64,000 nucleotides of DNA from a virus, in IMG/VR virus record IMGVR_UViG_3300037137_001673, positions 1 through 64,000 of that record; one strand, written 5' to 3'. The notes beneath the pieces are model-generated. The model ran no database searches. It saw nothing but the letters and a program-made list of their open reading frames with translations, and had not been told where the DNA came from. Both the position numbers and the translations under genes were made by a program. Positions 6,676 through 63,044 of this stretch are shown here, one piece after another (the stretch's first letter is position 1; each line of letters starts with the position of its first letter).

Positions 6676-6684
6676 TTAAATTAT

Positions 6685-49134: not shown

Positions 49135-49397
49135 AAAAATAGCTGACGTAACGACGCCAGCTTATCGTTCGAACTTTCCCGAAAGTCATATGTCTTTCCA
49201 TATGTCAAAAGTCTTTCCTTCTGCCAGACAAGTTGCGCTAGTAAAATAACATACTATACAGCAACTATGTCCCATTTTAACTTCAAGGTATACTAAGCAC
49301 TGCTGTGACTTCCATGTTCAGAAACATCGCTATATTAGTAATAGGTTGTTTAACTGTGAAAGTAGCTAGCGTGGCGGTTCACCGAAGAAATGGTTTA
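49135..49397 (-). ncRNA. Candidate structured RNA A in tRNA-Trp 3' trailer
   Basis: Three tandem TG(A/G)C-stem-GAAAG hairpins then terminator; shares motifs with 61833-62212. Confidence 0.55.
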
Positions 49398-49469
49398 CGG
49401 GTTCACAAAGATTTGAACTCTGAACTTCTGGGTTGGAGCCAGAAATGTTGCCAATTACACTATGAACCC
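49398..49469 (-). tRNA. tRNA-Trp(CCA)
   Basis: TCTGG-CTCCAAC-CCAGA; GTTCAAATC. Confidence 0.9.
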
Positions 49470-49734
49470 ATTAGTGGAGGAACGGCTGACAAATAATAAC
49501 TCACTTGGCAACCACCCCTCCAAGCCCCTCTACACCTAATAGCCGAAGCTAAATTCGGGACAAGGCATTTTGATTAACTTACAAATAATATAAGTCAATC
49601 TTTTAATCTCTAACTTCAATCTTTTCTCATAATTATTCTTTACAATATATATATAATAAATTTTTTAACTAGGCGGCGGAATACCTGTAGTCATACTACA
49701 CCTTTTCTTTGTATTAGGCCAGTTGTTTTAATAG

Positions 49735-49924
49735 TTTCCGTTCGTGGAAGCAGCACGGCTAGTCTTTTTCCTAGTAGTCAGGACCTGTTCTTTCGTGTGG
49801 GTTCCCGCACTCGGATACGATAACGGTTGTATCGGGCGATGAAATTTTTATCCTTCTAATTATTCATACAAGGTCGTCATTCCCTTTCGACTGGGCTTCT
49901 CAATTGTAGTGTGAGAAGTAGCAC
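49735..49924 (-). ncRNA. Candidate structured RNA C
   Basis: GC-rich, several hairpins, TGAC-TA-CTAG-GAAAAAGA-CTAG motif. Confidence 0.4.
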
Positions 49925-50056
49925 TTACTTCTTTCTCAAATCCTTCCATTCCTTTTTGGAAATGTAGGTATGAGTTCCTGCTTTTACCGAACGTCTAGCA
50001 GCCTCATCATAAATACGGGTAATGTCTTTCGTTTCAATGTTCTTGATGCATTTCAT
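49925..50056 (-). CDS. 43-aa basic protein (MKCIKNIETKDITRIY...KKEWKDLRKK), below ORF-track cutoff
   Basis: GGAGGA SD; directly after promoter TTTACA-17-TATAAT at 50085-50113. Confidence 0.65.
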   Translation of the reverse strand: MKCIKNIETKDITRIYDEAARRSVKAGTHTYISKKEWKDLRKK

Positions 50057-50118
50057 CAGTTATTCCTCCATGCTTTCTTTCATTATTATATCATAATTTT
50101 TGATTTTTGTAAAGTTTT

Positions 50119-50192
50119 TACTGGGAGAGAGATTTGAACTCTCATGACACTTATTTTGAGTAAGCGAAGTTTGCCAATTACTTCATCCCAGC
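50119..50192 (-). tRNA. tRNA-Leu(CAA), short variable loop
   Basis: GCTTA-CTCAAAA-TAAGT; GTTCAAATC. Confidence 0.85.
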
Positions 50193-50446
50193 TTGTTATA
50201 TTTTTCAAAAGCGATTTGTCCCCACCAAGTTCTTTTTTGTGCTTCTACTTGTTTTGAAATTATATGTTCTTCGATAATTCCTTTTTTCAAAGTTTCAAAA
50301 AACATTCCAGCTCCAGATAGAAATTCTTTTGCTCCTTCATATGGAGTTAAACTTGCTTCTTTGTATAGAGAAAAAATTATGTCATCTAATTTTACAAAAA
50401 TTTCTCCACCTATATTTATATGAATGAAATTGTGGTCCATAGGCAT
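50183..50446 (-). CDS. Hypothetical protein; stop codon inside tRNA-Leu(CAA)
   Basis: GAGGT SD. Confidence 0.55.
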   Translation of the reverse strand: MPMDHNFIHINIGGEIFVKLDDIIFSLYKEASLTPYEGAKEFLSGAGMFFETLKKGIIEEHIISKQVEAQKRTWWGQIAFEKYNKLG

Positions 50447-50460
50447 TTACTTTACCTCAT

Positions 50461-50547
50461 TGCGCAAGAAAGGAATTGAACCTTCACGCCCCTTACGGAA
50501 CACGAGACTCTCATTCTCGTATGGCTACCAGATTACATCACTTGCGC
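50461..50547 (-). tRNA. tRNA-Leu(GAG), long variable arm
   Basis: CGAGA-ATGAGAG-TCTCG; GGTTCAATTCC. Confidence 0.85.
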
Positions 50548-50550
50548 GTT

Positions 50551-50625
50551 TGCGAGCAAAAGGAGTTGAACCTTCAAAAAGTAGATTCTAAATCTACCGC
50601 GTCTAGCCAGTTGCGCCATGCTCGC
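50551..50625 (-). tRNA. tRNA-Leu(TAG), short variable loop
   Basis: GTAGA-TTTAGAA-TCTAC. Confidence 0.88.
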
Positions 50626-50630
50626 ATAAT

Positions 50631-51077
50631 TTAAAGATTTTCTAATTCGTTATTAAACCCATCGAAATCTGCTCTTTCAATTTTAAAAGCAATAATTTCT
50701 TTAAGATCAAATTTCTCATGAGAGTAAATAAATACAAATACAAAAGGGGAATCTTCTGTTGTAATTACTCTCCAGATATAACTTTTTTCTTTGAAGTAAA
50801 CTAAATTAATAATTGAACCTTCTACTTTTTCAGCAAAAATTTTTGCTACATGAAGAACTCCTCCATTGGCAGAAATTATTTTAGTTCCCTCAACTTCGAA
50901 AACTCCGCTAACTCCATAATCACTTATAATGGTATTTCCACCATCAAAAGAATGATACATTTTGTCCCATGTTCCTTGAAAAACTTTGTCAAATTCTTTA
51001 ACTTCAACAATCTTTGGCTGAGAAAAAATTGTAAATGATAAGAAGAGGAACAATAAAATGGAAAAAATCTTTTTCAT
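50631..51077 (-). CDS. Secreted hypothetical protein
   Basis: MKK-hydrophobic signal peptide ending IFS/Q. Confidence 0.65.
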   Translation of the reverse strand: MKKIFSILLFLFLSFTIFSQPKIVEVKEFDKVFQGTWDKMYHSFDGGNTIISDYGVSGVFEVEGTKIISANGGVLHVAKIFAEKVEGSIINLVYFKEKSYIWRVITTEDSPFVFVFIYSHEKFDLKEIIAFKIERADFDGFNNELENL

Positions 51078-51090
51078 AAAAAATCCTTAT

Positions 51091-51165
51091 TAGCGGAGGA
51101 GAGATTCGAACTCTCACTGACATCCTTTTAAGGGACGTGCCTCCTGCCAGTTGGGCTACTCCGCC
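51091..51165 (-). tRNA. tRNA-Leu(TAA), short variable loop
   Basis: CGTCC-CTTAAAA-GGATG; GTTCGAATC. Confidence 0.9.
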
Positions 51166-51821
51166 AAGTTAAAACTTACATTATTTTTAAACATTATATT
51201 TCTTATTCTAGCATAATTTCCTGCTTTAGGGGTTAATCCTGCTTTTATCAACAATTGTCTTATATTTTTAGTTTCACTTAATAACTCTATAATCTTTTCT
51301 TCACTTACCTGTATTTTACCTTTTCCTAAATTTCTCGCTCTAAAAGTATCAGATTGTGAATGACAATTAGGACAAAGAAATTCTAAGTTTTCTAATCTGT
51401 TGTCATTGTTAAATCCATTTTTATGCTCTAGTTCTAGAACTAATTTTTCTTCTTTCCAGATTCCTTCATTTCCACATTTTCTACATTTATATGGAATTAA
51501 GTTATATTTTATTAAATAATGTTTTAATCTACAAATTGCTATAAAAGAATTTGCTGAAAATATTTTATCTTTAGGAATTTTAGTTTTTATTCTTTCATCG
51601 TCAAAAAATGTTTTTCCCTTATTCCAACTAATTACTTTTTTAGTCTTTATACATTTTGTTAAATATTCTATTGATGCTCTACCTTCTTTGTGAGCTTTGC
51701 TAAGCCCTTCACTATTTTTTTTTCTATTAACTGGACATTGAGTATTCCACTTTTCACAGGTATTTCTTCCTGACTTATTTATAAATCTTGCTTCTTTTCC
51801 ACAACCATATTCGCATAGCAT
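51156..51821 (-). CDS. HNH homing endonuclease; stop inside tRNA-Leu(TAA)
   Basis: CRKCG, LELEHKNGFNNDNRLENLEFLCPNCH. Confidence 0.9.
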   Translation of the reverse strand: MLCEYGCGKEARFINKSGRNTCEKWNTQCPVNRKKNSEGLSKAHKEGRASIEYLTKCIKTKKVISWNKGKTFFDDERIKTKIPKDKIFSANSFIAICRLKHYLIKYNLIPYKCRKCGNEGIWKEEKLVLELEHKNGFNNDNRLENLEFLCPNCHSQSDTFRARNLGKGKIQVSEEKIIELLSETKNIRQLLIKAGLTPKAGNYARIRNIMFKNNVSFNLAE

Positions 51822-51896
51822 AAACTGCCTCCAAAAGTATCTTTACTGGCAATAACTATATATGCTATAACTATGCTCCTACCATTTTATAAAAAA

Positions 51897-51962
51897 AGGG
51901 ATGTAAAGGATTCTAACCTTCAACTTACTTTGATGTAAATTTTTCTTTTAAACTAACATCCC
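51897..51962 (-). pseudogene. Degenerate tRNA-like element
   Basis: GGGATGT/ACATCCC acceptor; T-arm GAAGG-TTAGAAT-CCTTT; 6-nt anticodon loop; reduced D arm. Confidence 0.55.
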
Positions 51963-52085
51963 TATCAAGAACAACTCATTTTCAGTGAGGTCAAGATGCG
52001 TCCATCCTTTTACATCTTCACGTTCTAAGCCATTTAACCCATTGCTACGGAAGAAAGAGCGTTCTATCTTATTTAACTTTCCTAG

Positions 52086-52158
52086 CCCGAAGTGTTTGAA
52101 TCGAACAAACGACCGCTTGGTCTTCAGCCAAGCGCTCTACCAACTGAGCTAACTCCGG
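52086..52158 (-). tRNA. tRNA-Phe(GAA)
   Basis: CTTGG-CTGAAGA-CCAAG; AGCTCAGTTGGTAGAGC D arm. Confidence 0.9.
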
Positions 52159-52162
52159 AAAG

Positions 52163-52237
52163 GGAGATTGACGAGGATTGAACTCGCATGATTCCTTGCT
52201 CCACAGGCAAGTGGCTTACCATTAGCCCACAATCTCC
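52163..52237 (-). tRNA. tRNA-His(GTG) with encoded G-1:C73
   Basis: CTTGC-CTGTGGA-GCAAG. Confidence 0.9.
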
Positions 52238-52242
52238 AAGTA

Positions 52243-52313
52243 AGCCCTAGGTTAGAGTCGAACTAACTTTAATAGTTTACCGAACTATCGTTCTGCCGTT
52301 AAACTACAAGGGC
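52243..52313 (-). tRNA. tRNA-Thr(GGT)
   Basis: ATAGT-TCGGTAA-ACTAT; GTTCGAC. Confidence 0.82.
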
Positions 52314-52913
52314 ATTTTCTTTTATTTTTATTATTTCTATGTTTTTTATGTTTATTAAATTTTGATGTATTTCTCTATGGCAATTAGAGCATACAAGAAT
52401 ACATTTATTTGCTTCTTCTATTAATTTAAACTTAGATTTTTCTAAACCATTACCACTTATTAAAAATTTTTTTTCATTTTTATTTTTATGATGAAAATCT
52501 AGAGCACTAAAACATTTATTGTATCCACAAACTTGACATTTACCCCCTTTTAAATCTGTTAATTTTCTTCTTATTTTTTTGCTTCTTGTATCTGTATATT
52601 TGTTAAAATTTTTAGCATTTATTCCATATGCTTGTGGACGATTTTTATCAAAGCATTCTTTACATAAATTTTCAGCACTTTTAGACATTCTACTACCACA
52701 AATTTTACAAATCTTTTTAATTTTTTTTATTTTATATCTATCTTCTTCATATCCTTTTTTAAGAGTTAAAGCTCTTTTAAAATTCATTTCATCCGATTGT
52801 ATTCTTTTATTAGAACAACTTCTAGAACAAAATCTCAAAGGATAATTTTTTGTGTGGTATTTATCCTTTCTCCAATCTTCAAAAAATTCCTTACCACAAC
52901 TTTCACAATTCAT
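52299..52913 (-). CDS. HNH homing endonuclease; stop inside tRNA-Thr(GGT)
   Basis: FCSRSC, GGKCQVCGY, ALDFHH, LVCSNCHREIH. Confidence 0.9.
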   Translation of the reverse strand: MNCESCGKEFFEDWRKDKYHTKNYPLRFCSRSCSNKRIQSDEMNFKRALTLKKGYEEDRYKIKKIKKICKICGSRMSKSAENLCKECFDKNRPQAYGINAKNFNKYTDTRSKKIRRKLTDLKGGKCQVCGYNKCFSALDFHHKNKNEKKFLISGNGLEKSKFKLIEEANKCILVCSNCHREIHQNLINIKNIEIIKIKENALVV

Positions 52914-52982
52914 AATTGAACTCTCCCATATATATATTTACTACATTCAATAATATATATGAGTTCAATTCTACCTACTGAG

Positions 52983-54929
52983 TTATAGTAGCATTCTTTC
53001 ACAATTATAAATATAGTTCCCATTTTTATAAGAGAACCAAACTACTTCTTCATACCAATCTTCCCAGTTTAACCACCTAATTTTAGAGCAGAGAATTTTA
53101 TATTGAACCTCTTTTTCCACTAGCTCAATTTCAATTCCTCTCAAAATTGCTTGGTAACACTCCCATATATTATAACTTAAATTTAAATTCTTGTCAAATC
53201 CTTGAAATGGTAGTTTTAAAAGAGTTTTATTTAATAATAAACTTTCGTGAAGTAGTTTTTCAAAACCAAAAGTATCTATTTTTGTTAAATAATCTGTAAG
53301 TATCTTTTCTGCTTCTACATAAAACTCATTTAATCTATTACTTTTAATTATGTCAATAAATTTATATTCATCAGTAGGCCACCAGATATTTAACCATTCT
53401 TTTGATTCACAATGAGGAATTTCTCCATTTTGTGTTTCCAATGCTTTTTTAGTAAAAAAAGAAATTATTTCTTCAAAAATTCCTGTAGATTTATTTTCAG
53501 TAAAAATTTCAGCTAATTTTCTAAAACTTATTCCATAAAATTTATTTAGAATAACAAATGGAATTTGTAGAAGTTTATTAAAGTGTAAAAGAGAAATTAC
53601 CCAAGCAAAAACTTTTGCCTTTATCCAGTCTTCTCTAGTTAAAGTATTTGTTGATGTTACTACTAATTCATTTTCAAAAACTTCTTCTACAGAAAGACTT
53701 CCGTGCCGATTAACAAGTTTCTTTTCCATTATATCAAAACTATATTTTTCTTGATATTCAATTCTTCCCATTTCAGCATTAGGGAGAATATTTAAATCTG
53801 AAAAAGTAATTCTGTTATGTTGTCCGTTTTCTATTATTTCTGAAATTCCATTTACATAAGAATCGTAAGTTTCTTCTGGCAGTCCTAAAATAATGTCTGT
53901 AAAAGCATCCACTCCAATGTTAGTTAATTTCTGTTTTACTTCTTTGAAGTGATTAATTTTCATATTTATTCTTTTTATTGCTTTTAAGGTATCTTCATTT
54001 GTAGATTGAAGGGAAAGAGAAATTGTAGTATTTAATCCAGCTTCTGCTAATAATTTGTAAGTATTATAAGTGTGTTCCTTAAAGTTTTTAGTGCTTTGAA
54101 CTGATATTCCTTCTGGATAACCAAACTTTATTTTATTATCTGCTACAAATTTAATAATTTCATAATCTCTTTCCAGCATTCCAAAATTAGAATCACAGCA
54201 AGTTATAAACTCAATTTTATTATTCTTGAACCATTCTACTTCTTTATAAAGTCTTTCCATGCCAAAAGTAAAAACTCTATTTTGTGTGGCAGAACCCCAG
54301 TCACAATAAGTGCAAGAAAAAGGACAACCTCTATTGGTTTCCCAAAGAGCAATCCAATTTACTTTTGGATTTGCTTTTATTAGTGGCTGGAAGATTTCTT
54401 CTAAAAATGGAGATGGAATACTATTTATTTCAAAAATTCTTGGAGGGTATTGAGAAAGTATTACTTCATTGTTTTTGTCTAAATAATTTATTCCGGAAAT
54501 TTCTCTCCAGTTACGATTAAAAAGATTTTTTAAAATTAAAGTAAAAGTTATTTCTCCATTACCAAGACAAGCCAAATTAACTTGAGGATTTTCTCTTAAA
54601 AATTTTTCTACTTTATCACAAGAAATTCCTGGTCCACCAAAAACGGTTATTACATTAGAATCTCTTTTTTTTAATAGTCTTGCTATTTCTAAAGAAATTC
54701 TTGTATTCCAAGTGTATAAACTAAAAAAAATTATCTCTGCACCAGATAATTCTCTTACTGCTTCTTTTAATGGAATTCTTTTATAGATTGGCAAAAGAAA
54801 TTCAAAATCACTTACATTATCTAAATACTTTTCAGCATATGCTTGTAATAATCCTAACGAATATGGCAAATACTCTTGATTAAAAAAAGAAGTATTTATC
54901 TGAACCATTCCTACTTTAATTTTTTGCAT
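52983..54929 (-). CDS. Cobalamin-binding radical SAM enzyme
   Basis: N-terminal B12-binding FSLYTWN/VFGGP/GNGE; RGCPFSCTYCDW; LGLPEET. Confidence 0.9.
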   Translation of the reverse strand: MQKIKVGMVQINTSFFNQEYLPYSLGLLQAYAEKYLDNVSDFEFLLPIYKRIPLKEAVRELSGAEIIFFSLYTWNTRISLEIARLLKKRDSNVITVFGGPGISCDKVEKFLRENPQVNLACLGNGEITFTLILKNLFNRNWREISGINYLDKNNEVILSQYPPRIFEINSIPSPFLEEIFQPLIKANPKVNWIALWETNRGCPFSCTYCDWGSATQNRVFTFGMERLYKEVEWFKNNKIEFITCCDSNFGMLERDYEIIKFVADNKIKFGYPEGISVQSTKNFKEHTYNTYKLLAEAGLNTTISLSLQSTNEDTLKAIKRINMKINHFKEVKQKLTNIGVDAFTDIILGLPEETYDSYVNGISEIIENGQHNRITFSDLNILPNAEMGRIEYQEKYSFDIMEKKLVNRHGSLSVEEVFENELVVTSTNTLTREDWIKAKVFAWVISLLHFNKLLQIPFVILNKFYGISFRKLAEIFTENKSTGIFEEIISFFTKKALETQNGEIPHCESKEWLNIWWPTDEYKFIDIIKSNRLNEFYVEAEKILTDYLTKIDTFGFEKLLHESLLLNKTLLKLPFQGFDKNLNLSYNIWECYQAILRGIEIELVEKEVQYKILCSKIRWLNWEDWYEEVVWFSYKNGNYIYNCERMLL

Positions 54930-54957
54930 ATAACTCCTTTGACTTTATTTATGCTAT

Positions 54958-55028
54958 AGCCATCTGCTAGAATCAAACTAGCATCTTATTTGTACGAAAA
55001 ATTGATTTTATCATTAAACTAAGATGGC
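54958..55028 (-). tRNA. tRNA-Thr(CGT), degenerate
   Basis: GCCATCT/AGATGGC acceptor; TTCGTAC loop; atypical TTTGA T-loop. Confidence 0.6.
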
Positions 55029-55170
55029 GTGAAATGTGTTATAAAACTTTATTAAAATAATGTTTAATTATTGTCTTTTTTTCTTTAATGAGAAACTTTA
55101 GACTAGCAGTAAAATATCCAAGATAAAATGTCCCTGGAATAATTAAAAATAACCACCAAGGACTCATATT

Positions 55171-55476
55171 TTATTCCTTTTCAGCTATTTCTTCTGCTAT
55201 AACAATTGCTGGACCAATTATATCTATCTTTTTATTGCTTACAGTAAATAGAATCATCACGTCTCCATTTTCACTTCTATCAGCTATGAAACACTTTCCA
55301 GTTTTTTCCCATAGAAGTTTTCCATCTATATTAGAATAAACTTTAATATTCCTAACTAGTCCTCCATTGTATCCAGTATCCTTCTGCTTATTCCACATCG
55401 CCGTTTGGGATGGGTTACAAGCAATAAAACTAAAGACTAGCAGAATTGCTAGAACTACGAACAGGAATTTTCTCAT
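55171..55476 (-). CDS. Lipoprotein
   Basis: MRK-hydrophobic-FIAC lipobox. Confidence 0.7.
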   Translation of the reverse strand: MRKFLFVVLAILLVFSFIACNPSQTAMWNKQKDTGYNGGLVRNIKVYSNIDGKLLWEKTGKCFIADRSENGDVMILFTVSNKKIDIIGPAIVIAEEIAEKE

Positions 55477-55742
55477 AACTTCTTTTCCTTCTTTTTGTTT
55501 ATTTGTTTCTTGATTTCTTGGTTAATTGCTCCAAGTGGACTAGCTCCAAAAATCTTTGCTGGTATATACCAAATAGGCATTGTGATTATCGACCACTTCA
55601 TTGTGAAGAAAATCAAATAACCTAGAGCGGGAATACACAAGAATGCGTAAGCCCACCATTGTGAGAATACCCAAATGTCAACCTGAAAGGTTGCCCATAG
55701 GAAATTCACATACGCTAAAAGAATTTCCAAAAATTCCATCAT
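55473..55742 (-). CDS. Small membrane protein
   Basis: Hydrophobic/aromatic, basic tail; coupled to neighbours. Confidence 0.6.
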   Translation of the reverse strand: MMEFLEILLAYVNFLWATFQVDIWVFSQWWAYAFLCIPALGYLIFFTMKWSIITMPIWYIPAKIFGASPLGAINQEIKKQINKKKEKKL

Positions 55743-56215
55743 TTCTTCACCTCTCTTACAAATTCAAATAATTTCATTATATTTTTAATAGGAGAAATTT
55801 TCTCCTCATTAAAAAATTCTTCTATATTCTCAAAATACTTTTTTACATAACCATCTACAAATCCATTTAAAATTACTTCAGAGTTTTTATTAAGAACCTT
55901 TTTTTCATAGATGGCCCAACTTAAAAAATTTGCTATATCTTTTTTTCTTTTGATGAAATTGTCAAATTGAATAGTCCAGTAATCTTTTTTTCCAGTATAA
56001 TGCCTTACTCTAATCCAGCCATTTATAGAAACTTCTTTTATTAGTTCTTCTCTAGCTTTTCCTTCCGTATATAATTTTTCTTTATATTTCTTGTAAGTGT
56101 TTTCTATTATTTCTTTAGTTATTCCAAATTTTTCAGGATGATAAATTATGTCACTGATATGACTATCAGTTGTCATGTCAGTTATTTCTTTATTTTTTAT
56201 CCAATAACCTTTCAC
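55739..56215 (-). CDS. Hypothetical protein
   Basis: GYWI, HPEKFG, EGKAREEL, GWIRVRHY. Confidence 0.6.
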   Translation of the reverse strand: MKGYWIKNKEITDMTTDSHISDIIYHPEKFGITKEIIENTYKKYKEKLYTEGKAREELIKEVSINGWIRVRHYTGKKDYWTIQFDNFIKRKKDIANFLSWAIYEKKVLNKNSEVILNGFVDGYVKKYFENIEEFFNEEKISPIKNIMKLFEFVREVKK

Positions 56216-56541
56216 TTTTTATTCCTTGCTTCATGCTCTTCCTTAATTATGCAGTCAGAACAAATACAAGTTTCTTCTGCTATTTCAATAGTAAGAAGTT
56301 TTTTGTCTTCTTTACTTAATTCTTGCCATAACTCTTTACCGCAAGAACAAAAAAATTTAACTTTTCCCATTTTTTTCTTTCATTTCTATTTTAAACTCAT
56401 TATTAAATGGAACGAAAACTGAATTAGTGCCAAGAACGGAATAAATCCAACCACCAGACACTCTTAAAATTTGCATATTTTCATCAATTATTACTTGGTG
56501 AATTTTCATTCCATAGATGTTTTCCATTTGTTTTCCTTTAG

Positions 56542-56629
56542 TGGGCTGGGTAGGACTCGAACCTACGGTGTTTTGTCTGAGACGCTTGATTTACAGTCAA
56601 GGGGATTCGCCACTATCCTTAACCAACCC
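56542..56629 (-). tRNA. tRNA-Tyr(GTA)
   Basis: CTTGA-CTGTAAA-TCAAG; long variable arm; GGTTCGAGTCC. Confidence 0.9.
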
Positions 56630-57011
56630 TAAATTCTTCATATTTCTCATATAAGGTAATAGAATTTATATTATTTAATTTTTCCACAGGTATAAAATAT
56701 TCTTCGTCATCTTCCGTTAAAATAAATAGATAATCACAAGAATTTTTTTCAAATTTCTTAGCATAATTAAAACTTTGATTTCCTCCAGTGGTTCTTAAAG
56801 ATGCTTTATAATTGCCATTAGATTGTTTGCTGGTGGTAGTTTTTACTTGTACTTTTAAAAGTTTTTTTTCTAATTCTACAATTAAATCATATCCTTGATT
56901 ATCATTTAAAGGTATGCTTACTGTAATTCCATTACTTGTAAAATACTTTATAGCAGAACCTATTCCTGCTAATCCTTTGTCTTTACTATTTTTATGTTTT
57001 GAAAGTTTCAT
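56619..57011 (-). CDS. PD-(D/E)XK homing endonuclease (I-Ssp6803I-like); stop inside tRNA-Tyr
   Basis: KG-x-AG, VSIPL-x-D-x-x-x-YDLIV, KVQVKT, DYLFI, YFIP. Confidence 0.82.
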   Translation of the reverse strand: MKLSKHKNSKDKGLAGIGSAIKYFTSNGITVSIPLNDNQGYDLIVELEKKLLKVQVKTTTSKQSNGNYKASLRTTGGNQSFNYAKKFEKNSCDYLFILTEDDEEYFIPVEKLNNINSITLYEKYEEFRVG

Positions 57012-57081
57012 AAATTTATCTTTACATAAGAGAGTATAATACTCTTTTTATACAGACCGCCGACAAAATTATTTCCCAAAG

Positions 57082-57236
57082 AAAGATAGTCGCTTGCCAT
57101 AGTTACATATTGTGCTAGCCGTTTATCTAACACACCACTTGTTAAAATGGAGCAAGCCCCTTCACACTTAACTAATTCAAAATCTAGTAACTTGTCATTG
57201 TTGAATCAGAATCGCACTTGGGAGTCGACTATCTTT
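57082..57236 (-). ncRNA. Candidate end-paired small RNA
   Basis: 11-bp terminal inverted repeat AAAGATAGTCG; abuts tRNA-Ser 3' end. Confidence 0.4.
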
Positions 57237-57240
57237 TTTA

Positions 57241-57325
57241 CGGAAGCGCAGCGATTTGAACGCTGAAAGGTTTCACCCTCGTCCGGGTTCAGACCGGATG
57301 GACTACCAGATTATCCCACGCTTCC
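57241..57325 (-). tRNA. tRNA-Ser(TGA)
   Basis: TCCGG-TCTGAAC-CCGGA; long variable arm; G73. Confidence 0.88.
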
Positions 57326-57375
57326 ATTAAGCAATTTTCTTTTTATCTTTCCGTTCTTTTTTCTCTTGTCTTTTT

Positions 57376-57404
57376 ATTATACCAGATTTTTCTTTTTCTG
57401 TCAA
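57376..57404 (-). promoter_or_regulatory. Sigma70-type promoter
   Basis: TTGACA-17-TATAAT. Confidence 0.8.
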
Positions 57405-57411
57405 TTTTCGC

Positions 57412-58056
57412 CTAAGCCAATTTAATTTTTTTTCTTTTTCTATTTGCTTCACTTATTTTCTTTCTAGTTTCTTCTGAAAAAACTTGGAGTTTTCTTTTTT
57501 CTTTAATTTTTTGTTTAGTTTCTTCCGAGTGATGCTTACCAAACATATTATTTTCTTCACCAATTTTTGCTTCACTCATTTTCTTTTTACTTTCTTCTGA
57601 ATGATGCTTGCCGAGCATACCATTTCCATTCTTCTTTTGTAGTTCGCTCATTTTCTTTATAGTTTCTTCTGAATGAGTTTTGCCTTCATGCGCTTTACTC
57701 ATTTTCCTTTTACTTTCTTCAGAATGGGTTCTTTTTCTATTTGCTTCACTTATCTTCCTTTTATGTTCTTTGTGAAGGTGTTTGTTTTTGTGCCCTCCAC
57801 TCTCAAAATTATATCCATTAGGAAAGATGCTATTACATTCTTGTATGTAATGCGTTTCCCAATAGTCAAGTTCTTTTTCTGGAACACTTTCTAATAAAAG
57901 TTTATCGAAATTATCACTTCCATATTTTTGTATTGCTTTTCCAGTTAAAGAGTTGGAATGTTGGTGACTTCTAAATCTTTTTTTAAAAGTTTGTGTTGTT
58001 TGTCCTATATAACACTTATCGTTTTTTCTATTTCTTAATATATAAATTATTCCCAT
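57412..58056 (-). CDS. GIY-YIG homing endonuclease with NUMOD3 (SegB-like location in tRNA cluster)
   Basis: MGIIYILRNRKNDKCYIGQT; HSEESKKKMS repeats. Confidence 0.9.
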   Translation of the reverse strand: MGIIYILRNRKNDKCYIGQTTQTFKKRFRSHQHSNSLTGKAIQKYGSDNFDKLLLESVPEKELDYWETHYIQECNSIFPNGYNFESGGHKNKHLHKEHKRKISEANRKRTHSEESKRKMSKAHEGKTHSEETIKKMSELQKKNGNGMLGKHHSEESKKKMSEAKIGEENNMFGKHHSEETKQKIKEKRKLQVFSEETRKKISEANRKRKKIKLA

Positions 58057-58089
58057 ATATAGTCTCCTATAACTATATATGTCGCGAGT

Positions 58090-58161
58090 TGCGGATTGTT
58101 AGAGTTGAACTAACGACTTTTTGCGTGTCGAGCAAATACTCTACCACTAAGTTAAACCCGC
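58090..58161 (-). tRNA. tRNA-Val(GAC)
   Basis: TTTGC-TCGACAC-GCAAA. Confidence 0.85.
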
Positions 58162-58164
58162 ATT

Positions 58165-58240
58165 TCGGAGTAGCTGGGTACGATCCAGCAAGTCTTCGCG
58201 TTCGAAGCGCGAGATTTTATCCAATTTAAACTATACTCCG
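58165..58240 (-). tRNA. tRNA-Arg(TCG)
   Basis: TCGCG-CTTCGAA-CGCGA; atypical ATCGTAC T-loop. Confidence 0.82.
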
Positions 58241-58384
58241 GAAAAAATAAAAGGTGCATAAAATTTCACTGAGACAATTGAGTAATCAATTATCTATAGA
58301 AGCCCCTATCGTAAAAATGATAGGAAATGCACCTTTTTCAGATATGTTTTTAAAGAGGATACCGCCTCTATTATATTTTATAAA

Positions 58385-58465
58385 AGGGCTGGCTCGCAAC
58401 TGCTGAGCCAACTGGCTATTTATTAGGCCCCTGCGGTCTGCCAGCGTGCCGAGGTTCCACGCCCT
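58385..58465 (-). ncRNA. Compact GC-rich four-way-junction RNA
   Basis: AGGGC/GCCCT closing stem with three internal hairpins. Confidence 0.45.
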
Positions 58466-58466
58466 A

Positions 58467-58540
58467 TGGAGATAAAGAGAATCGAACTCTTAACCTACAG
58501 ACTGCCAGCCTGTTGCTCTGCCATATTGAGCTATATCCCC
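58467..58540 (-). tRNA. tRNA-Ala(GGC)
   Basis: G3:U70; ACAGG-CTGGCAG-TCTGT. Confidence 0.9.
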
Positions 58541-58550
58541 GTTATTAAAC

Positions 58551-58814
58551 TTATCCCGATGGACCTGACCCAGTAATCAACTCTTCTGATTTACATTTAC
58601 TACATCTATAAACACAATAACTACCATTCAATTCTCCAGTGCTTTTCCATCTGTGTTTGCATTTTGAATTATAGTTGTGCTTTTTATCAAAGAAATATTT
58701 TTTTGGAGATAAAAACATCATTGCTATTACTACTAACATTCCTAGAAACATTATCCCTAGAAACATTATCAATATCAAACTCAGAATTATTGTCAACATC
58801 ATTGTTCCTTTCAT
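58551..58814 (-). CDS. Small membrane protein with Zn finger
   Basis: Transmembrane segment; CKHRW...CSKC. Confidence 0.55.
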   Translation of the reverse strand: MKGTMMLTIILSLILIMFLGIMFLGMLVVIAMMFLSPKKYFFDKKHNYNSKCKHRWKSTGELNGSYCVYRCSKCKSEELITGSGPSG

Positions 58815-58827
58815 TCATTTTACCATA

Positions 58828-59088
58828 TTAGAAAATTCCCTGTTGAATGAAGTATCTAAACAATCTGCCACGACTTTTAATCCATTCAATAGAAATTCCA
58901 ATTGCTGATTTTAGTCCTTTAGGTTTGCCTATTTCTGTATCTTGGAAATCATAAGCAGCTGGACACATATCGCAAGGTTTTTCATTAATTTCACCATACC
59001 CAGCATTGCAGCAATTGTTTTTACATTTCCAGCATACAACCATCCAAGTTTTACAAAGTAAACAGTATTCCCATTTGTATGGGTTCAC
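58828..59088 (-). CDS. Cys-rich hypothetical protein
   Basis: Multiple CxxC; coupled to pth2. Confidence 0.55.
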   Translation of the reverse strand: MNPYKWEYCLLCKTWMVVCWKCKNNCCNAGYGEINEKPCDMCPAAYDFQDTEIGKPKGLKSAIGISIEWIKSRGRLFRYFIQQGIF

Positions 59089-59480
59089 AGCAGTTTCAAT
59101 TCTCCTGTTATTGCATCTATTTTTTCTTCTTCATCTGGACCTATTGCTATACAAGTATTTGTAGGCATTCCATGAAATTCTGTAAGCCCGTTATCTTTAA
59201 TAAGAGCATTAGGAATTTTTGCTTCAAAAGCTTTTTTCTGTATTTCTAGAAGTTCTTCTTCGCTATTAACACCAACTACAATTTTAGTAAAAGAACCATC
59301 TCCATAATTCATCCATTTAATCATGGGTTCAGGTATATTAAATATTTCAAATCTGTCATGGTCAGTCCATTCTGCCATATCGAAAAACACTTTCATTGAG
59401 GCATGAGCTACCTGTGCGGCAAGTTTTCCTTTCCGCATATTTAAATCTTTACGAACTACTATTACTTGTTTTACGCTCAT
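59085..59480 (-). CDS. pth2: Peptidyl-tRNA hydrolase type 2
   Basis: KQVIVVRKDLNMRKGKLAAQVAHAS, KIVV, DNGLTE, IAIGP, ITGELKLL. Confidence 0.95.
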   Translation of the reverse strand: MSVKQVIVVRKDLNMRKGKLAAQVAHASMKVFFDMAEWTDHDRFEIFNIPEPMIKWMNYGDGSFTKIVVGVNSEEELLEIQKKAFEAKIPNALIKDNGLTEFHGMPTNTCIAIGPDEEEKIDAITGELKLL

Positions 59481-59598
59481 GTTTTTCTAAAAATTACCAT
59501 TAAAGCTTCAGCTGTTATATTAAGCCCTCTACTAGCTATATATTTTCCAAGTTTTGAATTAAATAAATAAACTATATTTTTAATTTTGTTATTTATAG

Positions 59599-59671
59599 AG
59601 GGATAGATAGGAATCGAACCTACAAAATGATGGGTTGCAATCATCCGCCTTTGCCATTCAGCCACTATCCC
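59599..59671 (-). tRNA. tRNA-Cys(GCA)
   Basis: TTGCAAC loop; U73; GGTTCGATTCC. Confidence 0.85.
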
Positions 59672-59673
59672 AT

Positions 59674-59748
59674 TGGACCTTGCGTGATTTGAACACGCCT
59701 GAATTTCTCGGTGCAAGCGAGACGACCACCCTAGCAGTCCCAAAGCCC
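59674..59748 (-). tRNA. tRNA-Ala(TGC)
   Basis: G3:U70; TCTCG-CTTGCAC-CGAGA. Confidence 0.88.
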
Positions 59749-59752
59749 TATT

Positions 59753-59830
59753 CTCCGGCGGCTGGACTCGGACCAGCGACCCTTTGTTTAACAGACAAAC
59801 GCTTTTATCTACCATCTGAGCTACGCCGGA
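59753..59830 (-). tRNA. tRNA-Asn(GTT), enlarged D loop
   Basis: TTTGT-CTGTTAA-ACAAA; TCC 5' end; G73. Confidence 0.85.
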
Positions 59831-59841
59831 AAGTTTTCAAT

Positions 59842-59922
59842 AGCTAATAGTAGGATTTGAACCCACGGTGTTTGTATTCTTGCTTACAAAGCAAGCCCAT
59901 TCGACCACTCTGGCATATTAGC
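59842..59922 (-). tRNA. tRNA-Thr(TGT) with unusually long variable region
   Basis: CTTGC-TTTGTAA-GCAAG; 12-nt variable region. Confidence 0.8.
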
Positions 59923-59927
59923 AATAG

Positions 59928-59998
59928 AGCGACATGTCAGACTTAAACTGACCTCTCTAGCTTGGAAGGCTAGGGCACAATCTCTATACCAATGTCGC
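59928..59998 (-). tRNA. tRNA-Gly(TCC)
   Basis: GCG 5' end; U73; CTAGC-CTTCCAA-GCTAG. Confidence 0.82.
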
Positions 59999-60001
59999 AT
60001 A

Positions 60002-60074
60002 CGGAGTTGATGGGTGACACTCCCACTATTTCAAGATTGACAATCTTGCGGCTCTGTTGACTGCCTCCAACTCC
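60002..60074 (-). tRNA. tRNA-Asp(GTC), atypical T loop
   Basis: CAAGA-TTGTCAA-TCTTG; G73. Confidence 0.75.
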
Positions 60075-60265
60075 AAACTTATTTCTTCTTAAATATGCCT
60101 TTGATTTTATTCCATAGCCATGCTGCTGCATCAGCAATTGCTTTCATAACTACATCACCAGCATACTTACCAACGAAAAATGCTATAACTACTAATGCTA
60201 ACCAAATCAACCACATATATTGCCTCTTTTATTTATCTTAACATTTAATTTAATTTTTGTCAAGC

Positions 60266-60649
60266 TTACATGTGCCAGCTTAAAACCTTTTCTCCATAAT
60301 CAGCTGGACTTCCTGCTAGCAAATCAAGCAATTCTTTTCTTGAACCGCCAACATTAGTTAGCAAGCAAAATAGGATTGTAGAAAAAATAAGACAGGCCAT
60401 AAATGTAGGCAAGAACACAATTATTGATTCTGATTTTTTCATAACCAAAATACAAATAATTATGAGAGAAACAAAATAAATAATTTCTAGTAAAAAACTA
60501 TGAGTTGCCCCACCAATAAATACTCCACCAATATATCCAATAATGGCTGGAACAAGCAATCCTATTAGAAGAACGCCTACTGCTTTCCCTAAAAAATTAT
60601 CCATTTTTCCTTTCCTTAGTCCCACAAATAAAACATGTATTTTACACAA
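60266..60649 (-). CDS. Membrane protein (about three TM segments; true start probably MDNF near 60604)
   Basis: Hydrophobic segments. Confidence 0.55.
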   Translation of the reverse strand: MCKIHVLFVGLRKGKMDNFLGKAVGVLLIGLLVPAIIGYIGGVFIGGATHSFLLEIIYFVSLIIICILVMKKSESIIVFLPTFMACLIFSTILFCLLTNVGGSRKELLDLLAGSPADYGEKVLSWHM

Positions 60650-60966
60650 AGCTTTTCTGCTTTTCGCATTCTTTCTTTGTTTTCATCCATTTCTTTCCAG
60701 TCATCCCTAATGAGTAGTTTCACAAACCACAGCATTTCCTTAAGAACATCAGTGTAAGCTTTGTCCCCATTGACATCTCCCAGTTTTTCAAACTCACTAG
60801 GAAATCCATAGTGATTATGGATTAGGTGAGTAAGTCTAGGAACAATCCATTTACACATTGCTATACCAAAATCCCATACTTCATCATTAGAATAACCACG
60901 AGTTATTTTTTGATAGAGTAGTTTAATTTTATAAGTAATGCTTTTACCAAAATATCCAATACGCAT
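60616..60966 (-). CDS. Hypothetical phage protein
   Basis: RGYS-x-x-EVW, GFP, C-terminal FYLWD. Confidence 0.65.
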   Translation of the reverse strand: MRIGYFGKSITYKIKLLYQKITRGYSNDEVWDFGIAMCKWIVPRLTHLIHNHYGFPSEFEKLGDVNGDKAYTDVLKEMLWFVKLLIRDDWKEMDENKERMRKAEKLCVKYMFYLWD

Positions 60967-60983
60967 ATTTTTTTCCTTTTTAC

Positions 60984-61073
60984 CGGAAAGTAAGAGATTT
61001 GAACTCTTGAACCTTGTTTAAGGGTTGCGGCGTTAGCGGTGCCGTGGTTTTAGCCAGACTCACCCAACTTTCC
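60984..61073 (-). tRNA. tRNA-Ser(GCT)
   Basis: CCGCTAA loop; long variable arm; G73. Confidence 0.87.
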
Positions 61074-61759
61074 TAATTTAAATTTCCTTTAATTTCTGTA
61101 TTTCAGTTTTTTCTTCTTTGCTGATTTCTTCGATGAGTATTTCATTAACGAGTTCATTAAAGGTAATGTCTCGTCTGTGTGCTTCTCTTGCTAGAAAGAG
61201 AAATTCTTCATCGCTTATTTCAACCTCTACATTAACCATTTTTTCCTCGTTCATTTATTGCTCCTTCTTGAAGTATATAATTTGTCCAGAACCATCCTTT
61301 AATAAAACTATAATAATAAGTCTTTTTTTCAATTATTAAAAAGTTAAACATCTTGGATAAATAAATAACTTTATCCATTTATTTAGTATCTCCAGTTGTT
61401 ACTTCTATATTTAATATATCTATATTTACAACTATGTAAGAACTATCGCCAGCTTTTACCTTTGCTAAAGTCATCTTATCTTGTAAATTCCAAACTTCTT
61501 CAATAGTTCCATTGAAATTTATATAAGATACTTTTTTATTTACTAATTTTTCTGCTTCTTCTAATTTCATTTATTTATTTTTCTTCTCAAGAGAGGAAAG
61601 TAATTCATCAACTTCGGAAGCTAGATAAACTTCTGTATGTCTCTCGTTATGGAAAGCATGGGCAATAATCATTGCTGGAGTCATGTCTTTGTAGGCTTCT
61701 ACTAAACAAGTATCTGCCCAATATAACTTCAATTTATTCATTTCCTAACTCCTAAAATA

Positions 61760-61788
61760 ATTATATCACAAATTTTGATTTTTGTAAA
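61760..61788 (-). promoter_or_regulatory. Sigma70-type promoter
   Basis: TTTACA-17-TATAAT with TG extension. Confidence 0.75.
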
Positions 61789-61832
61789 TAACTATTCACG
61801 AAAACCGCCCTTCTGCCACATATATCTTAGAC

Positions 61833-62212
61833 AAAAAAATGGGCACCAGGCTTGCCTACAAGAGCTTACCCAGCACCCATACGGAACTTTCCCCGTAGTC
61901 ATTGTGTCTTTTCCACAACGTCAGTGTAAAAGGTCTGGAAGGTAATTTATTTTTAAGTGTAAATTTCCACTACCACGAAACCACTCCCCGTATCTTTTTC
62001 GAGGCGTCACTTCCATTTACGATGATGGTTGCCTAACGGATACTTTATCAGTCACCTAGTCTTCCCTAGGAGCCATACACATAAACCTTTTCGCTGGCGA
62101 TCAACCCAGCAGTTTTTATTGCTTCGTTCCATATTTAATGATAGGGGAGGCAATAAGATCGCAATTGGTGCGAAGCATCCGCATACGCAGGTGACATTCG
62201 ACAAAAGCGAAC
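61833..62212 (-). ncRNA. Candidate structured RNA B in tRNA(CAT) 3' trailer
   Basis: Shares GTTARRCAACC, ATGGAAGT-S-AC and TGAC/GAAAG hairpins with RNA A; ends in terminator. Confidence 0.55.
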
Positions 62213-62284
62213 TGGTAGGGTCCAGAGTCGAACTGGAATCATTCACCTTATGAGAGTGACAATCTACCATTAATATACCCTACT
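62213..62284 (-). tRNA. tRNA with CAT anticodon (Met or lysidine Ile2)
   Basis: TCACT-CTCATAA-GGTGA; GTTCGAC; lacks initiator 3 G-C pairs. Confidence 0.85.
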
Positions 62285-62410
62285 ACGAAAATGCGAAGAG
62301 AAACGACCGTATCAAGAGAGCATCGAACGAAGTAACCGCATCAATTACAGCGCCTAGCTCTTGGTGGATTCTCAATTAATGAACGCCTTACGGCAGGTCA
62401 TTCTAAAAAA

Positions 62411-62741
62411 GAGAGAGAAAAAAATGGGTAGGATTAACATTTACCTACAAAGTAGATTCACTTTCAGATTATTCAGCCACTACACCCACTCCTCCGTCGA
62501 GAAGGGGCTTGTATGTAGGAAGGATTGAGTACCTTCAAGTCAGGCAGTGAGTAGTGCCATTATAATGGCTCAGGGATTTCTGCCCTTCTCCTTACTAGTT
62601 GTGCGAACCCCAAGGGTTGTACGACCCCCAACTAGCTTTCGTGCTTTATCTGCGCAGCGAACTTCTAGCTCTCACCAGTTCTTCACTGACAAGACGCCTT
62701 ATCCACCTCAATGGATTGTTCGGCAACCAAATTTTTCTCTC
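62411..62741 (-). ncRNA. Candidate ~330-nt end-paired structured RNA
   Basis: GAGAGAAAAA...TTTTTCTCTC closing helix; many GC-rich hairpins; no SD-led ORF. Confidence 0.5.
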
Positions 62742-62925
62742 AAATTTAAAAGAACTATACAACTATTGCCCTTTAGACAATAGAAGATCTGTTCCCACAC
62801 ATGGTGGGTCAGGTTTTAATCGTTCTGACTTTCGCACAGAACTGGGCGACTGCGTCTCTACCGCAATTTTAACCTTAAAGTAGTTTCACCACCATCTAGG
62901 CTGTCCACTACTAAAATTACAAAAT

Positions 62926-63007
62926 AAAGGAACAAGGATTTGAAAGACGAGATGCCCGAAGGCGATAACATTTACAGTGTTGATAACGCCTTTTCATTCA
63001 GTTCCTT
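62926..63007 (-). pseudogene. tRNA-Tyr-like RNA with degenerate D and T arms
   Basis: AAGGAAC/GTTCCTT acceptor; AACA-CTGTAAA-TGTT; GCC-TTCG-GGC variable arm. Confidence 0.55.
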
Positions 63008-63015
63008 ATATTATT

Positions 63016-63044
63016 ATCTTATCACAATGATTGAAAATTGTCAA
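63016..63044 (-). promoter_or_regulatory. Sigma70-type promoter heading non-coding unit
   Basis: TTGACA-17-TAAGAT with TG extension. Confidence 0.7.

Follow-up and report, generated by a model that had tools for sequence, protein, structure and literature searches.

A small UGAC/GAAAGA hairpin in two phage tRNA trailers and at the borders of RNA units in many unrelated phages

Several described systems place small hairpins or small RNAs in settings like the one analysed here. Boxes of the λ boxB type have a GNRA-like pentaloop to which an arginine-rich peptide of the N type binds, with boxA lying upstream, and the consensus selected by CsrA in SELEX experiments is A-N-GGA in hairpin loops. 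ANTAR-regulated RNAs need loops with A first and G fourth, and their second hairpin overlaps the terminator. The 3' external transcribed spacer of the E. coli glyW-cysT-leuZ transcript is a tRNA-trailer sponge that pairs with sRNAs on Hfq. GOLLD and ROOL are ncRNAs of phages and prophages that often lie beside tRNAs and are probably co-transcribed with them (PMC5737381), and the function of the phage T4 RNAs RNAC and RNAD (species 1 and 2) is still unknown (PMC3014915). Annotations of phage tRNA clusters usually show tRNAs and empty spacers; the spacers and trailers of the cluster described here are built from a sharply conserved hairpin.

Our analysis of the window, a 64,000-nucleotide stretch of a 76-kb viral record (IMG/VR IMGVR_UViG_3300037137_001673, positions 1 to 64,000), concerns two trailers that we call RNA A and RNA B (Table 1). 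An earlier sequence-only reading had placed them on the minus strand after tRNA-Trp and a tRNA with anticodon CAT, each ending in an intrinsic terminator. ARAGORN calls both tRNAs at these places, and both ends were confirmed, that of A by the terminator scanner and that of B by its stem and U run. Credible sense-strand ORFs are absent from both trailers according to the ORF check, and both fold better than shuffled sequences (z of -3.1 for RNA A and -2.1 for RNA B). The promoter-like site heads an untranslated unit of about 1.2 kb that contains tRNA-Met and RNA B. Homing endonuclease genes are present in the same gene cluster. No close relatives of the source phage were found in searches.

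Table 1. Features of the two tRNA trailers and their surroundings in the window
Feature	Position	Strand	Basis and remarks
Hairpin A3, R1 type	49168..49188	-	UGAC-U lead, 4-bp stem + G.U, GGAAAGUU loop; R1 38.3 bits
Hairpin A2	49187..49207	-	UGAC lead, 6-bp stem, GAAAGA loop; R2 14.5 bits, E 0.0013
Hairpin A1	49206..49226	-	UGGC lead, 6-bp stem, GAAAGA loop; R2 9.3 bits, weak partial match
RNA A intrinsic terminator	49135..49162	-	9-bp stem and U run; terminator scanner call
RNA A	49135..49396	-	262-nt non-coding trailer up to terminator; ORF, fold and Rfam checks
tRNA-Trp(CCA)	49397..49470	-	ARAGORN; Rfam tRNA 60 bits; CCA not encoded; RNA A directly behind
Hairpin C	49759..49780	-	UGAC-UA lead, 4-bp stem, GAAAAAGA loop
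RNA B terminator	61833..61878	-	10-bp stem with inner hairpin, then U run; read from sequence and fold
RNA B	61833..62211	-	379-nt non-coding trailer up to terminator; ORF, fold and Rfam checks
Hairpin B4, R1 type	61880..61901	-	UGAC lead, 5-bp stem, GGAAAGUU loop; R1 35 bits
Hairpin B3	61900..61923	-	UGAC lead, 7-bp stem, GAAAAGA loop
Imperfect hairpin B2	61986..62009	-	UGAC-G lead, 4-bp stem, enlarged A-rich loop; pattern match, weak
Hairpin B1	62055..62075	-	UGGC-U lead, 5-bp stem, GGAAGA loop; R2 6.6 bits
tRNA-Met(CAT)	62212..62285	-	ARAGORN and Rfam; RNA B directly behind
Promoter-like site	63016..63044	-	10/12 matches, TG extension; promoter scan and sequence

RNA A ends in three tandem hairpins (A1-A3) and the terminator, and RNA B in two (B3 and B4) and the terminator, with two further copies upstream (B1 and the imperfect B2). 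The hairpin had been said to recur about seven times, also near 49760-49780 and 62052-62075, and indeed seven G-C-closed hairpins were located in the 76-kb record, with loops of the form G-A(n)-G-A/UU (GAAAGA or GGAAAGUU type; loop words starting at 62066, 61914, 61893, 49771, 49218, 49199 and 49180). Every one of them is on the minus strand, in non-coding sequence linked to tRNAs, and has the same orientation as the tRNAs, and none of the roughly 26 other copies of the loop words in the record has three or more flanking pairs. Their leads are UGAC in five cases and UGGC in two, as read from the sequence; stems in the window are 4-7 bp long, every one closed by G-C, and the exact GAAAGA loop is present in A1 and A2, while the other hairpins have an extra A or two, GGAAGA, or GGAAAGUU. 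Sites with UGAC plus a hairpin number 11, against 4.4 +/- 1.9 in shuffles, and the five good ones are all in trailers. Hairpins of the window precede other hairpins and terminators, and none stands directly before a tRNA; A3 is 5 nt and B4 1 nt ahead of the terminator stem, without any overlap between hairpin and terminator stem, and hairpin C occupies the untranslated interval between a 43-aa ORF and tRNA-Trp. The family model R2, whose training sites have a GG-extended lead that is absent here, finds A2 best in the window and gives the rest less than 10 bits.

How alike are RNA A and RNA B? They had been taken for homologous ncRNAs, and this holds for a 3' module of about 50 nt, over which alone their likeness is significant (local score 119 against 54 +/- 10, reached by 0 of 500 shuffles, z about 6.5), but not for the whole RNAs: the upstream parts have a similarity score below the shuffle mean, and blastn of A against B gives no match at E <= 1. 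Two short upstream blocks that had been thought to be shared, GTTA(AA/GG)CAACC and GGAAGT(C/G)AC, are at chance level: chance alone would give some 6-7 matches of equal quality, and the evidence for colinearity is marginal (p about 0.05). On the other hand, the proposal that the stems vary while pairing and loops are kept is borne out by five double, pair-preserving changes that separate the aligned A and B hairpins. We also considered a single homologous ncRNA family comprising A and B, which is not supported, their similarity being confined to one module. Judged from their sequences, the two RNAs are modular, with a common end module built from a hairpin that is found in hundreds of unrelated phage contigs.

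In the Rfam 15 covariance search only tRNAs reach threshold in the window, and the match to a known family that would have removed the novelty of the earlier reading's ncRNA class did not turn up. At relaxed E-values (E <= 1-10) no Rfam family lies over A or B, including GOLLD, ROOL, CsrB/Rsm and the ribozymes (HDV-like and others), and none lies over the hairpin at 19 other hairpin loci; a manA-like match at 62418-62754, outside A and B, reaches 21.9 bits where the gathering score is 55.2. The UGAC/GAAAGA hairpin is listed in no RNA catalogue (Rfam 15 searched).

Many unrelated phages, together with some further mobile elements, use this hairpin at RNA-unit borders, most often 2-8 nt ahead of a tRNA 5' end and often as the terminator hairpin itself or immediately in front of one. 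In its consensus a UGAC or UGGC lead is followed, after roughly one spacer base, by a stem of about 5 bp that is free in sequence and closed by G-C, with a purine hexaloop, GAAAGA or near variants. In a first, cross-phage scan 111 sites were tested for stem formation around the loop, and a stem of at least 4 bp (exactly 5 bp in 42 cases) is formed at 47, compared with about 2% by chance; a tRNA follows 4-12 nt downstream at 8 of these 47 sites and at 0 of the 64 that form no stem. A second scan searched IMG/VR with one stem variant and no required lead, and hit more than 119 contigs; among the 112 sites scored the flank has U in 88%, G in 96%, A/G in 96%, C in 96% and A in 86%, the lead being exactly UGAC in 81 (72%) and UGGC in 17, whereas a reversed-loop control hit 36 contigs with a UGAC lead at 0 of 31. 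In 22 of the 112 (about 20%) the 5' end of a tRNA lies 2-8 nt further downstream. A U run or terminator is present within 30 nt downstream at 20 of 111 sites (about 18%), compared with 12 of 555 random positions, and these terminator-proximal sites have the same context as those in RNA A and RNA B. One contig (L453) has four units of hairpin plus tRNA-like structure, one of them directly after an ORF stop; in most other phages the hairpin is a single copy beside tRNAs or terminators. It is very probable that, in descriptive terms, this is a modular boundary hairpin at transcript ends.

The R1 variant, with a GGAAAGUU loop that can alternatively be read as GAAAGU closed by G.U, has stems that covary across its carriers. 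In L004 the variant stands in the trailer of a permuted tmRNA plus tRNA-Met, in L016 in the leader of tRNA-Tyr, in L014 in that of a capsid gene, and in L024 and L037 in a small RNA next to a relaxase; one carrier is a relaxase-bearing mobilisable island. The carriers range from 33 to 60% GC and no protein common to them was found, which indicates a host factor or an RNA-intrinsic role.

We suggest, from position and conservation, that RNA A and RNA B may each be the untranslated 3' tail of a phage transcription unit that carries a tRNA, and that the hairpin may be an end-of-unit cap, and we give this whole statement nearly even odds (roughly 45%). The mechanism, which we hold tentatively at somewhat short of an even chance, would be that RNase P cutting of the next tRNA, or termination, leaves the hairpin as the 3'-terminal structure of the upstream RNA, where it would fix that end and shield it against 3' exonucleases. 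It might do so by binding a hypothetical conserved host factor, as the invariance of lead and loop suggests. Cleavage by RNase Z behind the CCA-less tRNAs could then free A and B, each as a stabilised small RNA of its own with an upstream body that would be phage-specific. A processing signal, one of the functions offered in the sequence-only reading, is among the better readings, as a putative function. Against the end cap, a plain exonuclease barrier gives no reason why lead and loop should be invariant, and a cap ahead of an already stable terminator would be partly redundant. The lack of tRNAs directly behind the hairpins of the window, and their weak scores with R2, also count against it. 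A broader proposal is that the hairpin could be the site of one conserved cellular factor (RNA polymerase with Nus, or a 3'-end-handling protein) and a universal punctuation of untranslated RNA operons in phages of very different hosts, the tandem arrays of A and B being high-avidity forms that might also act as trans sinks; this we think rather doubtful.

Other functions can be imagined for such a hairpin. Tandem copies, three in A and two in B, could titrate a loop-specific RNA-binding protein during infection (CsrA/RsmA, or another host or phage protein), and fixed loops on free stems are typical of what loop-reading proteins bind, with GGA lying across the border of stem and loop. Such a sponge or decoy is nevertheless unlikely: most phages carry a single copy whose distance to a tRNA or terminator is fixed, which favours a role in cis, no CsrB/Rsm family matches in Rfam, a Pfam search of 28 neighbouring ORFs found no RNA-binding domain, and the R1 carriers have no common protein. 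The CsrA/RsmA form of this idea, raised at the outset, is a misfit, as the loops read G-A-A-A-G-A after the closing G with no A-N before GGA, on top of the mostly single copies and the 33-60% GC of carriers that share no protein. The nascent hairpin and its lead might instead bind RNA polymerase, Nus factors or a small N-like phage protein, in the manner of boxB, and so tune termination or read-through at the next terminator or tRNA. The 5-bp stem and G-A-rich loop do resemble those of λ boxB, a conserved linear element stands immediately before the hairpin, terminators are more frequent just after it than at random positions (those of A and B included), long untranslated units would need protection from Rho, and at 62670-62694 there is a hairpin whose loop and closing pair are exactly of the λ nutR type. 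Yet the loop has 6 nt and not 5, the lead does not resemble boxA, no protein like N was identified, anti-Rho protection would be useless at the very end of a unit where the A and B hairpins stand, and the fixed 2-8 nt to tRNA 5' ends better suits the geometry of processing, so that we think this distinctly unlikely.

Constant spacing to the next structured element, and the occurrence of the hairpin in crowded arrays of structured RNAs, would also suit a folding insulator, a fast local hairpin that keeps upstream sequence out of the next acceptor stem or terminator and preserves a single-stranded 5-nt leader for RNase P. Any stable hairpin would do for that purpose, however, and a near-invariant lead, loop and 3' A over hosts of 33-60% GC need a sequence-specific partner, which makes insulation quite unlikely as the function. 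Finally, the homing endonuclease genes of the cluster and the relaxase of the mobilisable R1 carrier could be taken to mean that the repeats are a DNA site (an operator, or a recombination or homing site) rather than an RNA element, or they could be chance inverted repeats. Variable arms around a fixed spacer are the reverse of operator logic, the copies are strand-specific and oriented like the tRNAs, and the strong enrichment over shuffles and controls speaks against chance; both possibilities are most improbable.

If the hairpin were an end-defining or factor-binding signal as in the end-cap reading, it would explain how long untranslated phage transcripts become stable pieces, serve as a cheap annotation marker of RNA-unit borders, and point to a conserved host factor exploited by phages. 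The window contributes tandem hairpin arrays at transcript ends and a second loop variant (GGAAAGUU), which recurs in the trailer of a tmRNA and tRNA, in the leader of a capsid gene and in a small RNA linked to a relaxase. It also corrects the earlier reading, in that A and B are modular rather than a single RNA family.

Among known systems, T4 RNAC and RNAD resemble A and B in being small ncRNAs directly behind a tRNA and co-transcribed with it, in a tRNA cluster with a GIY-YIG homing endonuclease gene, but the likeness is one of genomic position only; they share no sequence or motif with A and B and have no UGAC/GAAAGA hairpin, and model R1 finds no match in rnaC or rnaD. GOLLD and ROOL are likewise phage ncRNAs linked to tRNAs, whereas A and B are small and modular, lack a single ornate fold, and give no covariance match. 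The glyW-cysT-leuZ spacer, like A and B, comes from a tRNA 3' trailer and stops at the operon terminator, but no pairing partner or Hfq site is evident in A and B. CsrB, RsmY and RsmZ likewise contain small hairpins in a row that carry GGA at the loop, and likewise close with a terminator; the hairpin described here differs from theirs in having no A-N-GGA context and no Rfam match, and in being mostly a single copy at boundaries in other phages. ANTAR-regulated RNAs share with A and B two adjacent small hairpins with conserved hexaloops directly before an intrinsic terminator, but the loops here have G1 and A4, and the terminator stem is not overlapped. The boxB elements of λ and P22 differ in that the phage hairpin has a G-C-closed hexaloop (6-8 nt in the window), a UGAC lead that is not boxA, and a usual position 2-8 nt before tRNAs, and in its spread over phages of hosts with 33-60% GC in which no N homologue was seen; among the neighbouring ORFs scanned none was recognised as N-like, and an antitermination role is putative. 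Even so, boxB and the phage hairpin are alike in their stems of about 5 bp that are free in sequence, their fixed purine-rich loops of the G-A-A type and the linear element just upstream, and both stand ahead of terminators.

The trailers transcribed from the minus strand behind tRNA-Trp (RNA A) and tRNA-Met(CAT) (RNA B) end in hairpins that are a real, uncatalogued RNA element; those of the window are a new tandem, terminator-proximal form of a hairpin carried by many phages, which has a UGAC lead, a stem of about 5 bp and a GAAAGA loop. RNA A has three consecutive hairpins (A1-A3) and then a terminator, and RNA B has two and then a terminator, with two more hairpins upstream (B1-B4); both RNAs have a stem and U run at the 3' end, both fold better than shuffles of the same dinucleotide content (A, z -3.1; B, z -2.1), and no credible sense-strand ORF was found in either trailer. 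When the loop word (G, 1-2 G, 2-5 A, G, A or UU, C) was searched in the whole record and flanking pairs were counted, at least three extra pairs were found at 7 sites and at most two at the other approximately 26, and all seven stem-forming sites are on the minus strand within tRNA-linked untranslated stretches. The sequence-only reading, which had counted the hairpin about seven times and placed copies also near 49760-49780 and 62052-62075, was correct. Hairpins with a UGAC lead and a purine loop number 11, compared with 4.4 +/- 1.9 in shuffles; the convincing cases among them are five, every one in these trailers. Ahead of tRNA-Trp, a small basic ORF (table) is followed by an untranslated, structured RNA stretch of about 260 nt, in which hairpin C lies. 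The leader of tRNA-Met (62286-63010, minus strand) is also untranslated and structured over about 700 nt, from a promoter at 63016-63044 to the tRNA, and it includes a 10-bp hairpin (62670-62694) with the exact loop and closing pair of the lambda nutR type, as well as a long pyrimidine run (62410-62433).

It had been claimed from the sequence alone that A and B are two homologous ncRNAs, and this holds for their ends. The two end modules reach a local alignment score of 119, where shuffles give 54 +/- 10 (0 of 500 reach 119), while the upstream 174 nt of A and 288 nt of B score 81 against 99 +/- 15, which is under chance level, and blastn finds no match between A and B at E <= 1. Two short upstream blocks that had been taken as shared are at chance level, since chance alone would give six to seven matches of their quality and 5% of shuffles equal their colinearity; an integron-like GTTRRRY reading of the first of these blocks is likewise chance-expected (p about 0.07 by our own estimate). 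The common cassette is about 50 nt long and consists of a GAAAGA-type hairpin, a GGAAAGUU hairpin and the terminator. In the aligned module hairpins, base pairing is preserved through all five double substitutions, and the loops and the junction between the hairpins are identical, so the covariation of stems proposed earlier stands for the module. Judged by these alignments, A and B appear homologous only in part, in the end cassette.

The wider family was found with pattern scans, which match exact words only and give site totals that are lower bounds, and the counts given here are for a single stem variant and a single lead variant. The first scan, which required a GG-extended lead and the loop and left the stem bases free, gave 111 unique sites, and a stem of at least 4 bp is present in 47 of these (exactly 5 bp in 42), where about 2% would be expected. 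ARAGORN calls a tRNA 4-12 nt downstream of 8 of the 47 stem-formers and of 0 of the 64 non-formers. A lead-free scan with one common stem variant found at least 119 contigs, and among the matches listed (112 unique sites) the stem is preceded, in this order, by U (88%), G (96%), A or G (96%), C (96%) and A (86%), the lead being UGAC in 81 and UGGC in 17; an A follows the stem in 77%, and a tRNA starts 2-8 nt downstream at 22 of these sites. Of 111 hairpins, 13 have a U run behind them and for 7 more a terminator-like hairpin starts within 30 nt; at random positions the corresponding control is 12 of 555. The reversed-loop control with the same stem found 36 contigs, with the lead in 0 of 31. 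In one contig (L453, 4700-6020, plus strand) there are four units in which a canonical hairpin is followed after 5-6 nt by a tRNA or tRNA-like RNA, and one of the hairpin units lies directly behind an ORF stop; the tRNA-like units have a CCA-type end, and ARAGORN calls one of the four. In another (L178) a canonical hairpin lies 6 nt ahead of a tRNA-Cys-like gene in a phage tRNA cluster. The same cluster includes an ARAGORN tRNA with a four-base anticodon (gaaa) at 5155-5231 on the plus strand.

In lead (UGAC or UGGC), G-C closure and stem length the hairpins of the window agree with the family; the family loop is exact in two of them and slightly varied in the rest, and they stand immediately ahead of a terminator, one of two settings that recur in the family. 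A covariance model of the family (R2, built from 22 distinct stems at sites selected for the GG-extended lead) gives A2 14.5 bits and the other window hairpins less than 10, low scores that are due in part to that selection, and we file the window hairpins as divergent family members. The last hairpin before each terminator, A3 and B4, has the loop variant that we call R1, which can be seen as the same architecture closed by G.U, with GAAAGU as its loop.

The word common to A3 and B4 occurs at 36 loci in the IMG/VR scan, mostly as chance matches inside genes, and nine of the 36 have a stem of at least 4 bp. L004, L014, L016, L024 with L037, and L027 are the clear intergenic cases (table). In an unbiased set with any closing bases such stems are present at 7 of 94 sites; G-C-closed sites in this set have them in 5 of 8 cases, with a sixth of 3 bp, and in the control sets the figures are 7 of about 110 and 0 of about 25. 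The R1 stems covary in an alignment whose rows were chosen for pairing. One R1 locus (L004) is on a 56-kb viral contig that is 93% complete, where a trailer of 70 nt has a purine-loop hairpin, the R1 hairpin and a U run. In a viral contig (L024) and a genome island of Pseudomonas reidholzensis (L037) the RNA with R1 adjoins a MobA/VirD2 relaxase operon, which makes this a mobilisable element that has a small RNA of its own. R1 is rare, since a sample of 2.86 Mb of viral DNA contains no near-variant and the exact commonest variant is in 1 of 185,579 bacterial species genomes and in four metagenome records, three of which duplicate viral contigs. Carriers have one copy each, with two in the phage of the window; their GC content ranges from 33 to 60%, and BLASTP found no protein common to them. 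A mini-ORF reading of the R1 word (a start codon and T-x-G-K-V) was rejected because C precedes UG in 6 of 10 copies, an SD is missing and the stems covary; a pseudoknot of lead and R1 loop was rejected by reasoning, as its linkers would have zero length, and the tandem two-hairpin module was dropped as a search unit because the pattern gave chance matches without stems.

Coordinates and settings of features in the window and of R1 hairpins in other contigs
Sequence	Feature	Positions	Strand	Remark
Window	RNA ligase	47081-48232	-	
Window	tRNA-model match	48825-48896	-	41 bits; no ARAGORN call
Window	RNA A	49396 to 49135	-	behind tRNA-Trp
Window	basic 43-aa ORF	49925-50056	-	13 K/R, strong SD, own consensus promoter
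Window	HNH nuclease	51156-51821	-	
Window	tRNA-model match	51897-51962	-	39 bits; no ARAGORN call
Window	B12-binding (B12-type) radical SAM enzyme	52983-54929	-	648 aa; mid tRNA cluster
Window	PD-(D/E)XK nuclease	56619-57011	-	
Window	GIY-YIG nuclease	57412-58056	-	
Window	PTH2 peptidyl-tRNA hydrolase	59085-59480	-	
Window	RNA B	62211 to 61833	-	behind tRNA-Met(CAT)
L004	R1	6225-6690	-	R1 lies behind permuted (two-piece) tmRNA and tRNA-Met; positions are of the whole stretch from tmRNA to trailer
L014	R1			in capsid-gene leader
L016	R1			7 nt before tRNA-Tyr
L024	RNA of about 200 nt with R1 near 5' end	3540-3760	-	promoter to terminator; homologous to L037 RNA
L027	R1			clear intergenic case
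L029	R1			72 nt from contig end, under long stop-free frame on other strand; setting uncertain
L037	RNA of about 200 nt with R1 near 5' end	6560-6760	-	promoter to terminator; homologous to L024 RNA

These comparisons show an element of free stem sequence, its lead and loop being fixed, that is placed at the borders of RNA units and, as far as sequence can tell, works on the transcribed strand. RNase P cutting at the next tRNA, or the end of transcription, would leave the hairpin at the very 3' end of the RNA upstream, and because it would remain terminal in either case we infer that it may be a cap by which this end is set and shielded. Neither tRNA-Trp nor tRNA-Met(CAT) ahead of A and B encodes CCA, and in the phage of the window RNase Z cleavage behind them would release A and B as small RNAs with such a cap. 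Lead and loop are invariant across very different hosts and the phages share no protein, which makes a conserved host partner likely. A rival explanation is that the hairpins bind a protein in trans as a sponge, and the CsrA version of this is the least supported. The hairpin could also be a transcription signal like boxB, or a folding insulator and nothing more; both are rivals to the end cap.

The virus record is a single sequence of 75,970 bp, about 38% complete according to CheckV and with a GC content of 34%, of which the window covers 64 kb. Near-identical DNA is present in sediment metagenome runs of three studies (share of sampled words >= 0.66), the capsid protein is of a distant T4 type with at most 33% identity to any phage record, and the promoters are of the sigma-70 consensus type and carry a TG extension. 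The phage collection, searched with DNA, gave no close relatives of the phage for covariation, and a tblastn search with the radical SAM protein and a search for the RNA-ligase locus gave no useful relatives of the phage. ARAGORN finds 22 tRNAs on the minus strand between 48.8 and 63.5 kb, interspersed with small ORFs and protein genes; two further matches come from Rfam only (table) and may be tRNA look-alikes. The radical SAM enzyme is nearly missing from phage records and finds bacterial homologues only (48-55% identity, in Omnitrophica, Elusimicrobia, Brocadia and candidate-phyla bacteria); its gene is probably host-derived, and the enzyme perhaps acts on RNA.

At gathering score Rfam 15 matches only tRNAs in the window. 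The comparison with known families proposed in the sequence-only reading found none that overlaps A or B even with E relaxed to 10, nor does an Rfam family cover the hairpin at other loci, and Rfam membership was rejected. A manA-like match at 62418-62754 (21.9 bits, where the gathering score is 55.2) lies in the tRNA-Met leader, outside B. Self-cleaving ribozymes (hammerhead, hairpin, HDV-like and others) were rejected because no model matches and the core words are missing, and ANTAR, type III antitoxin repeats and CRISPR-repeat mimics because their defining loop or repeat features are lacking; a full-text literature search gave no description of the hairpin. The RNAs rnaC and rnaD of phage T4, whose role is still unknown (PMC3014915), differ in being without any such hairpins, and they are analogues by position only. 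The layout is nevertheless the same in T4, in which tRNA-Arg is followed by rnaD and rnaC and a GIY-YIG homing-endonuclease gene, segB, lies inside the tRNA cluster, giving a mix comparable to that of the window.
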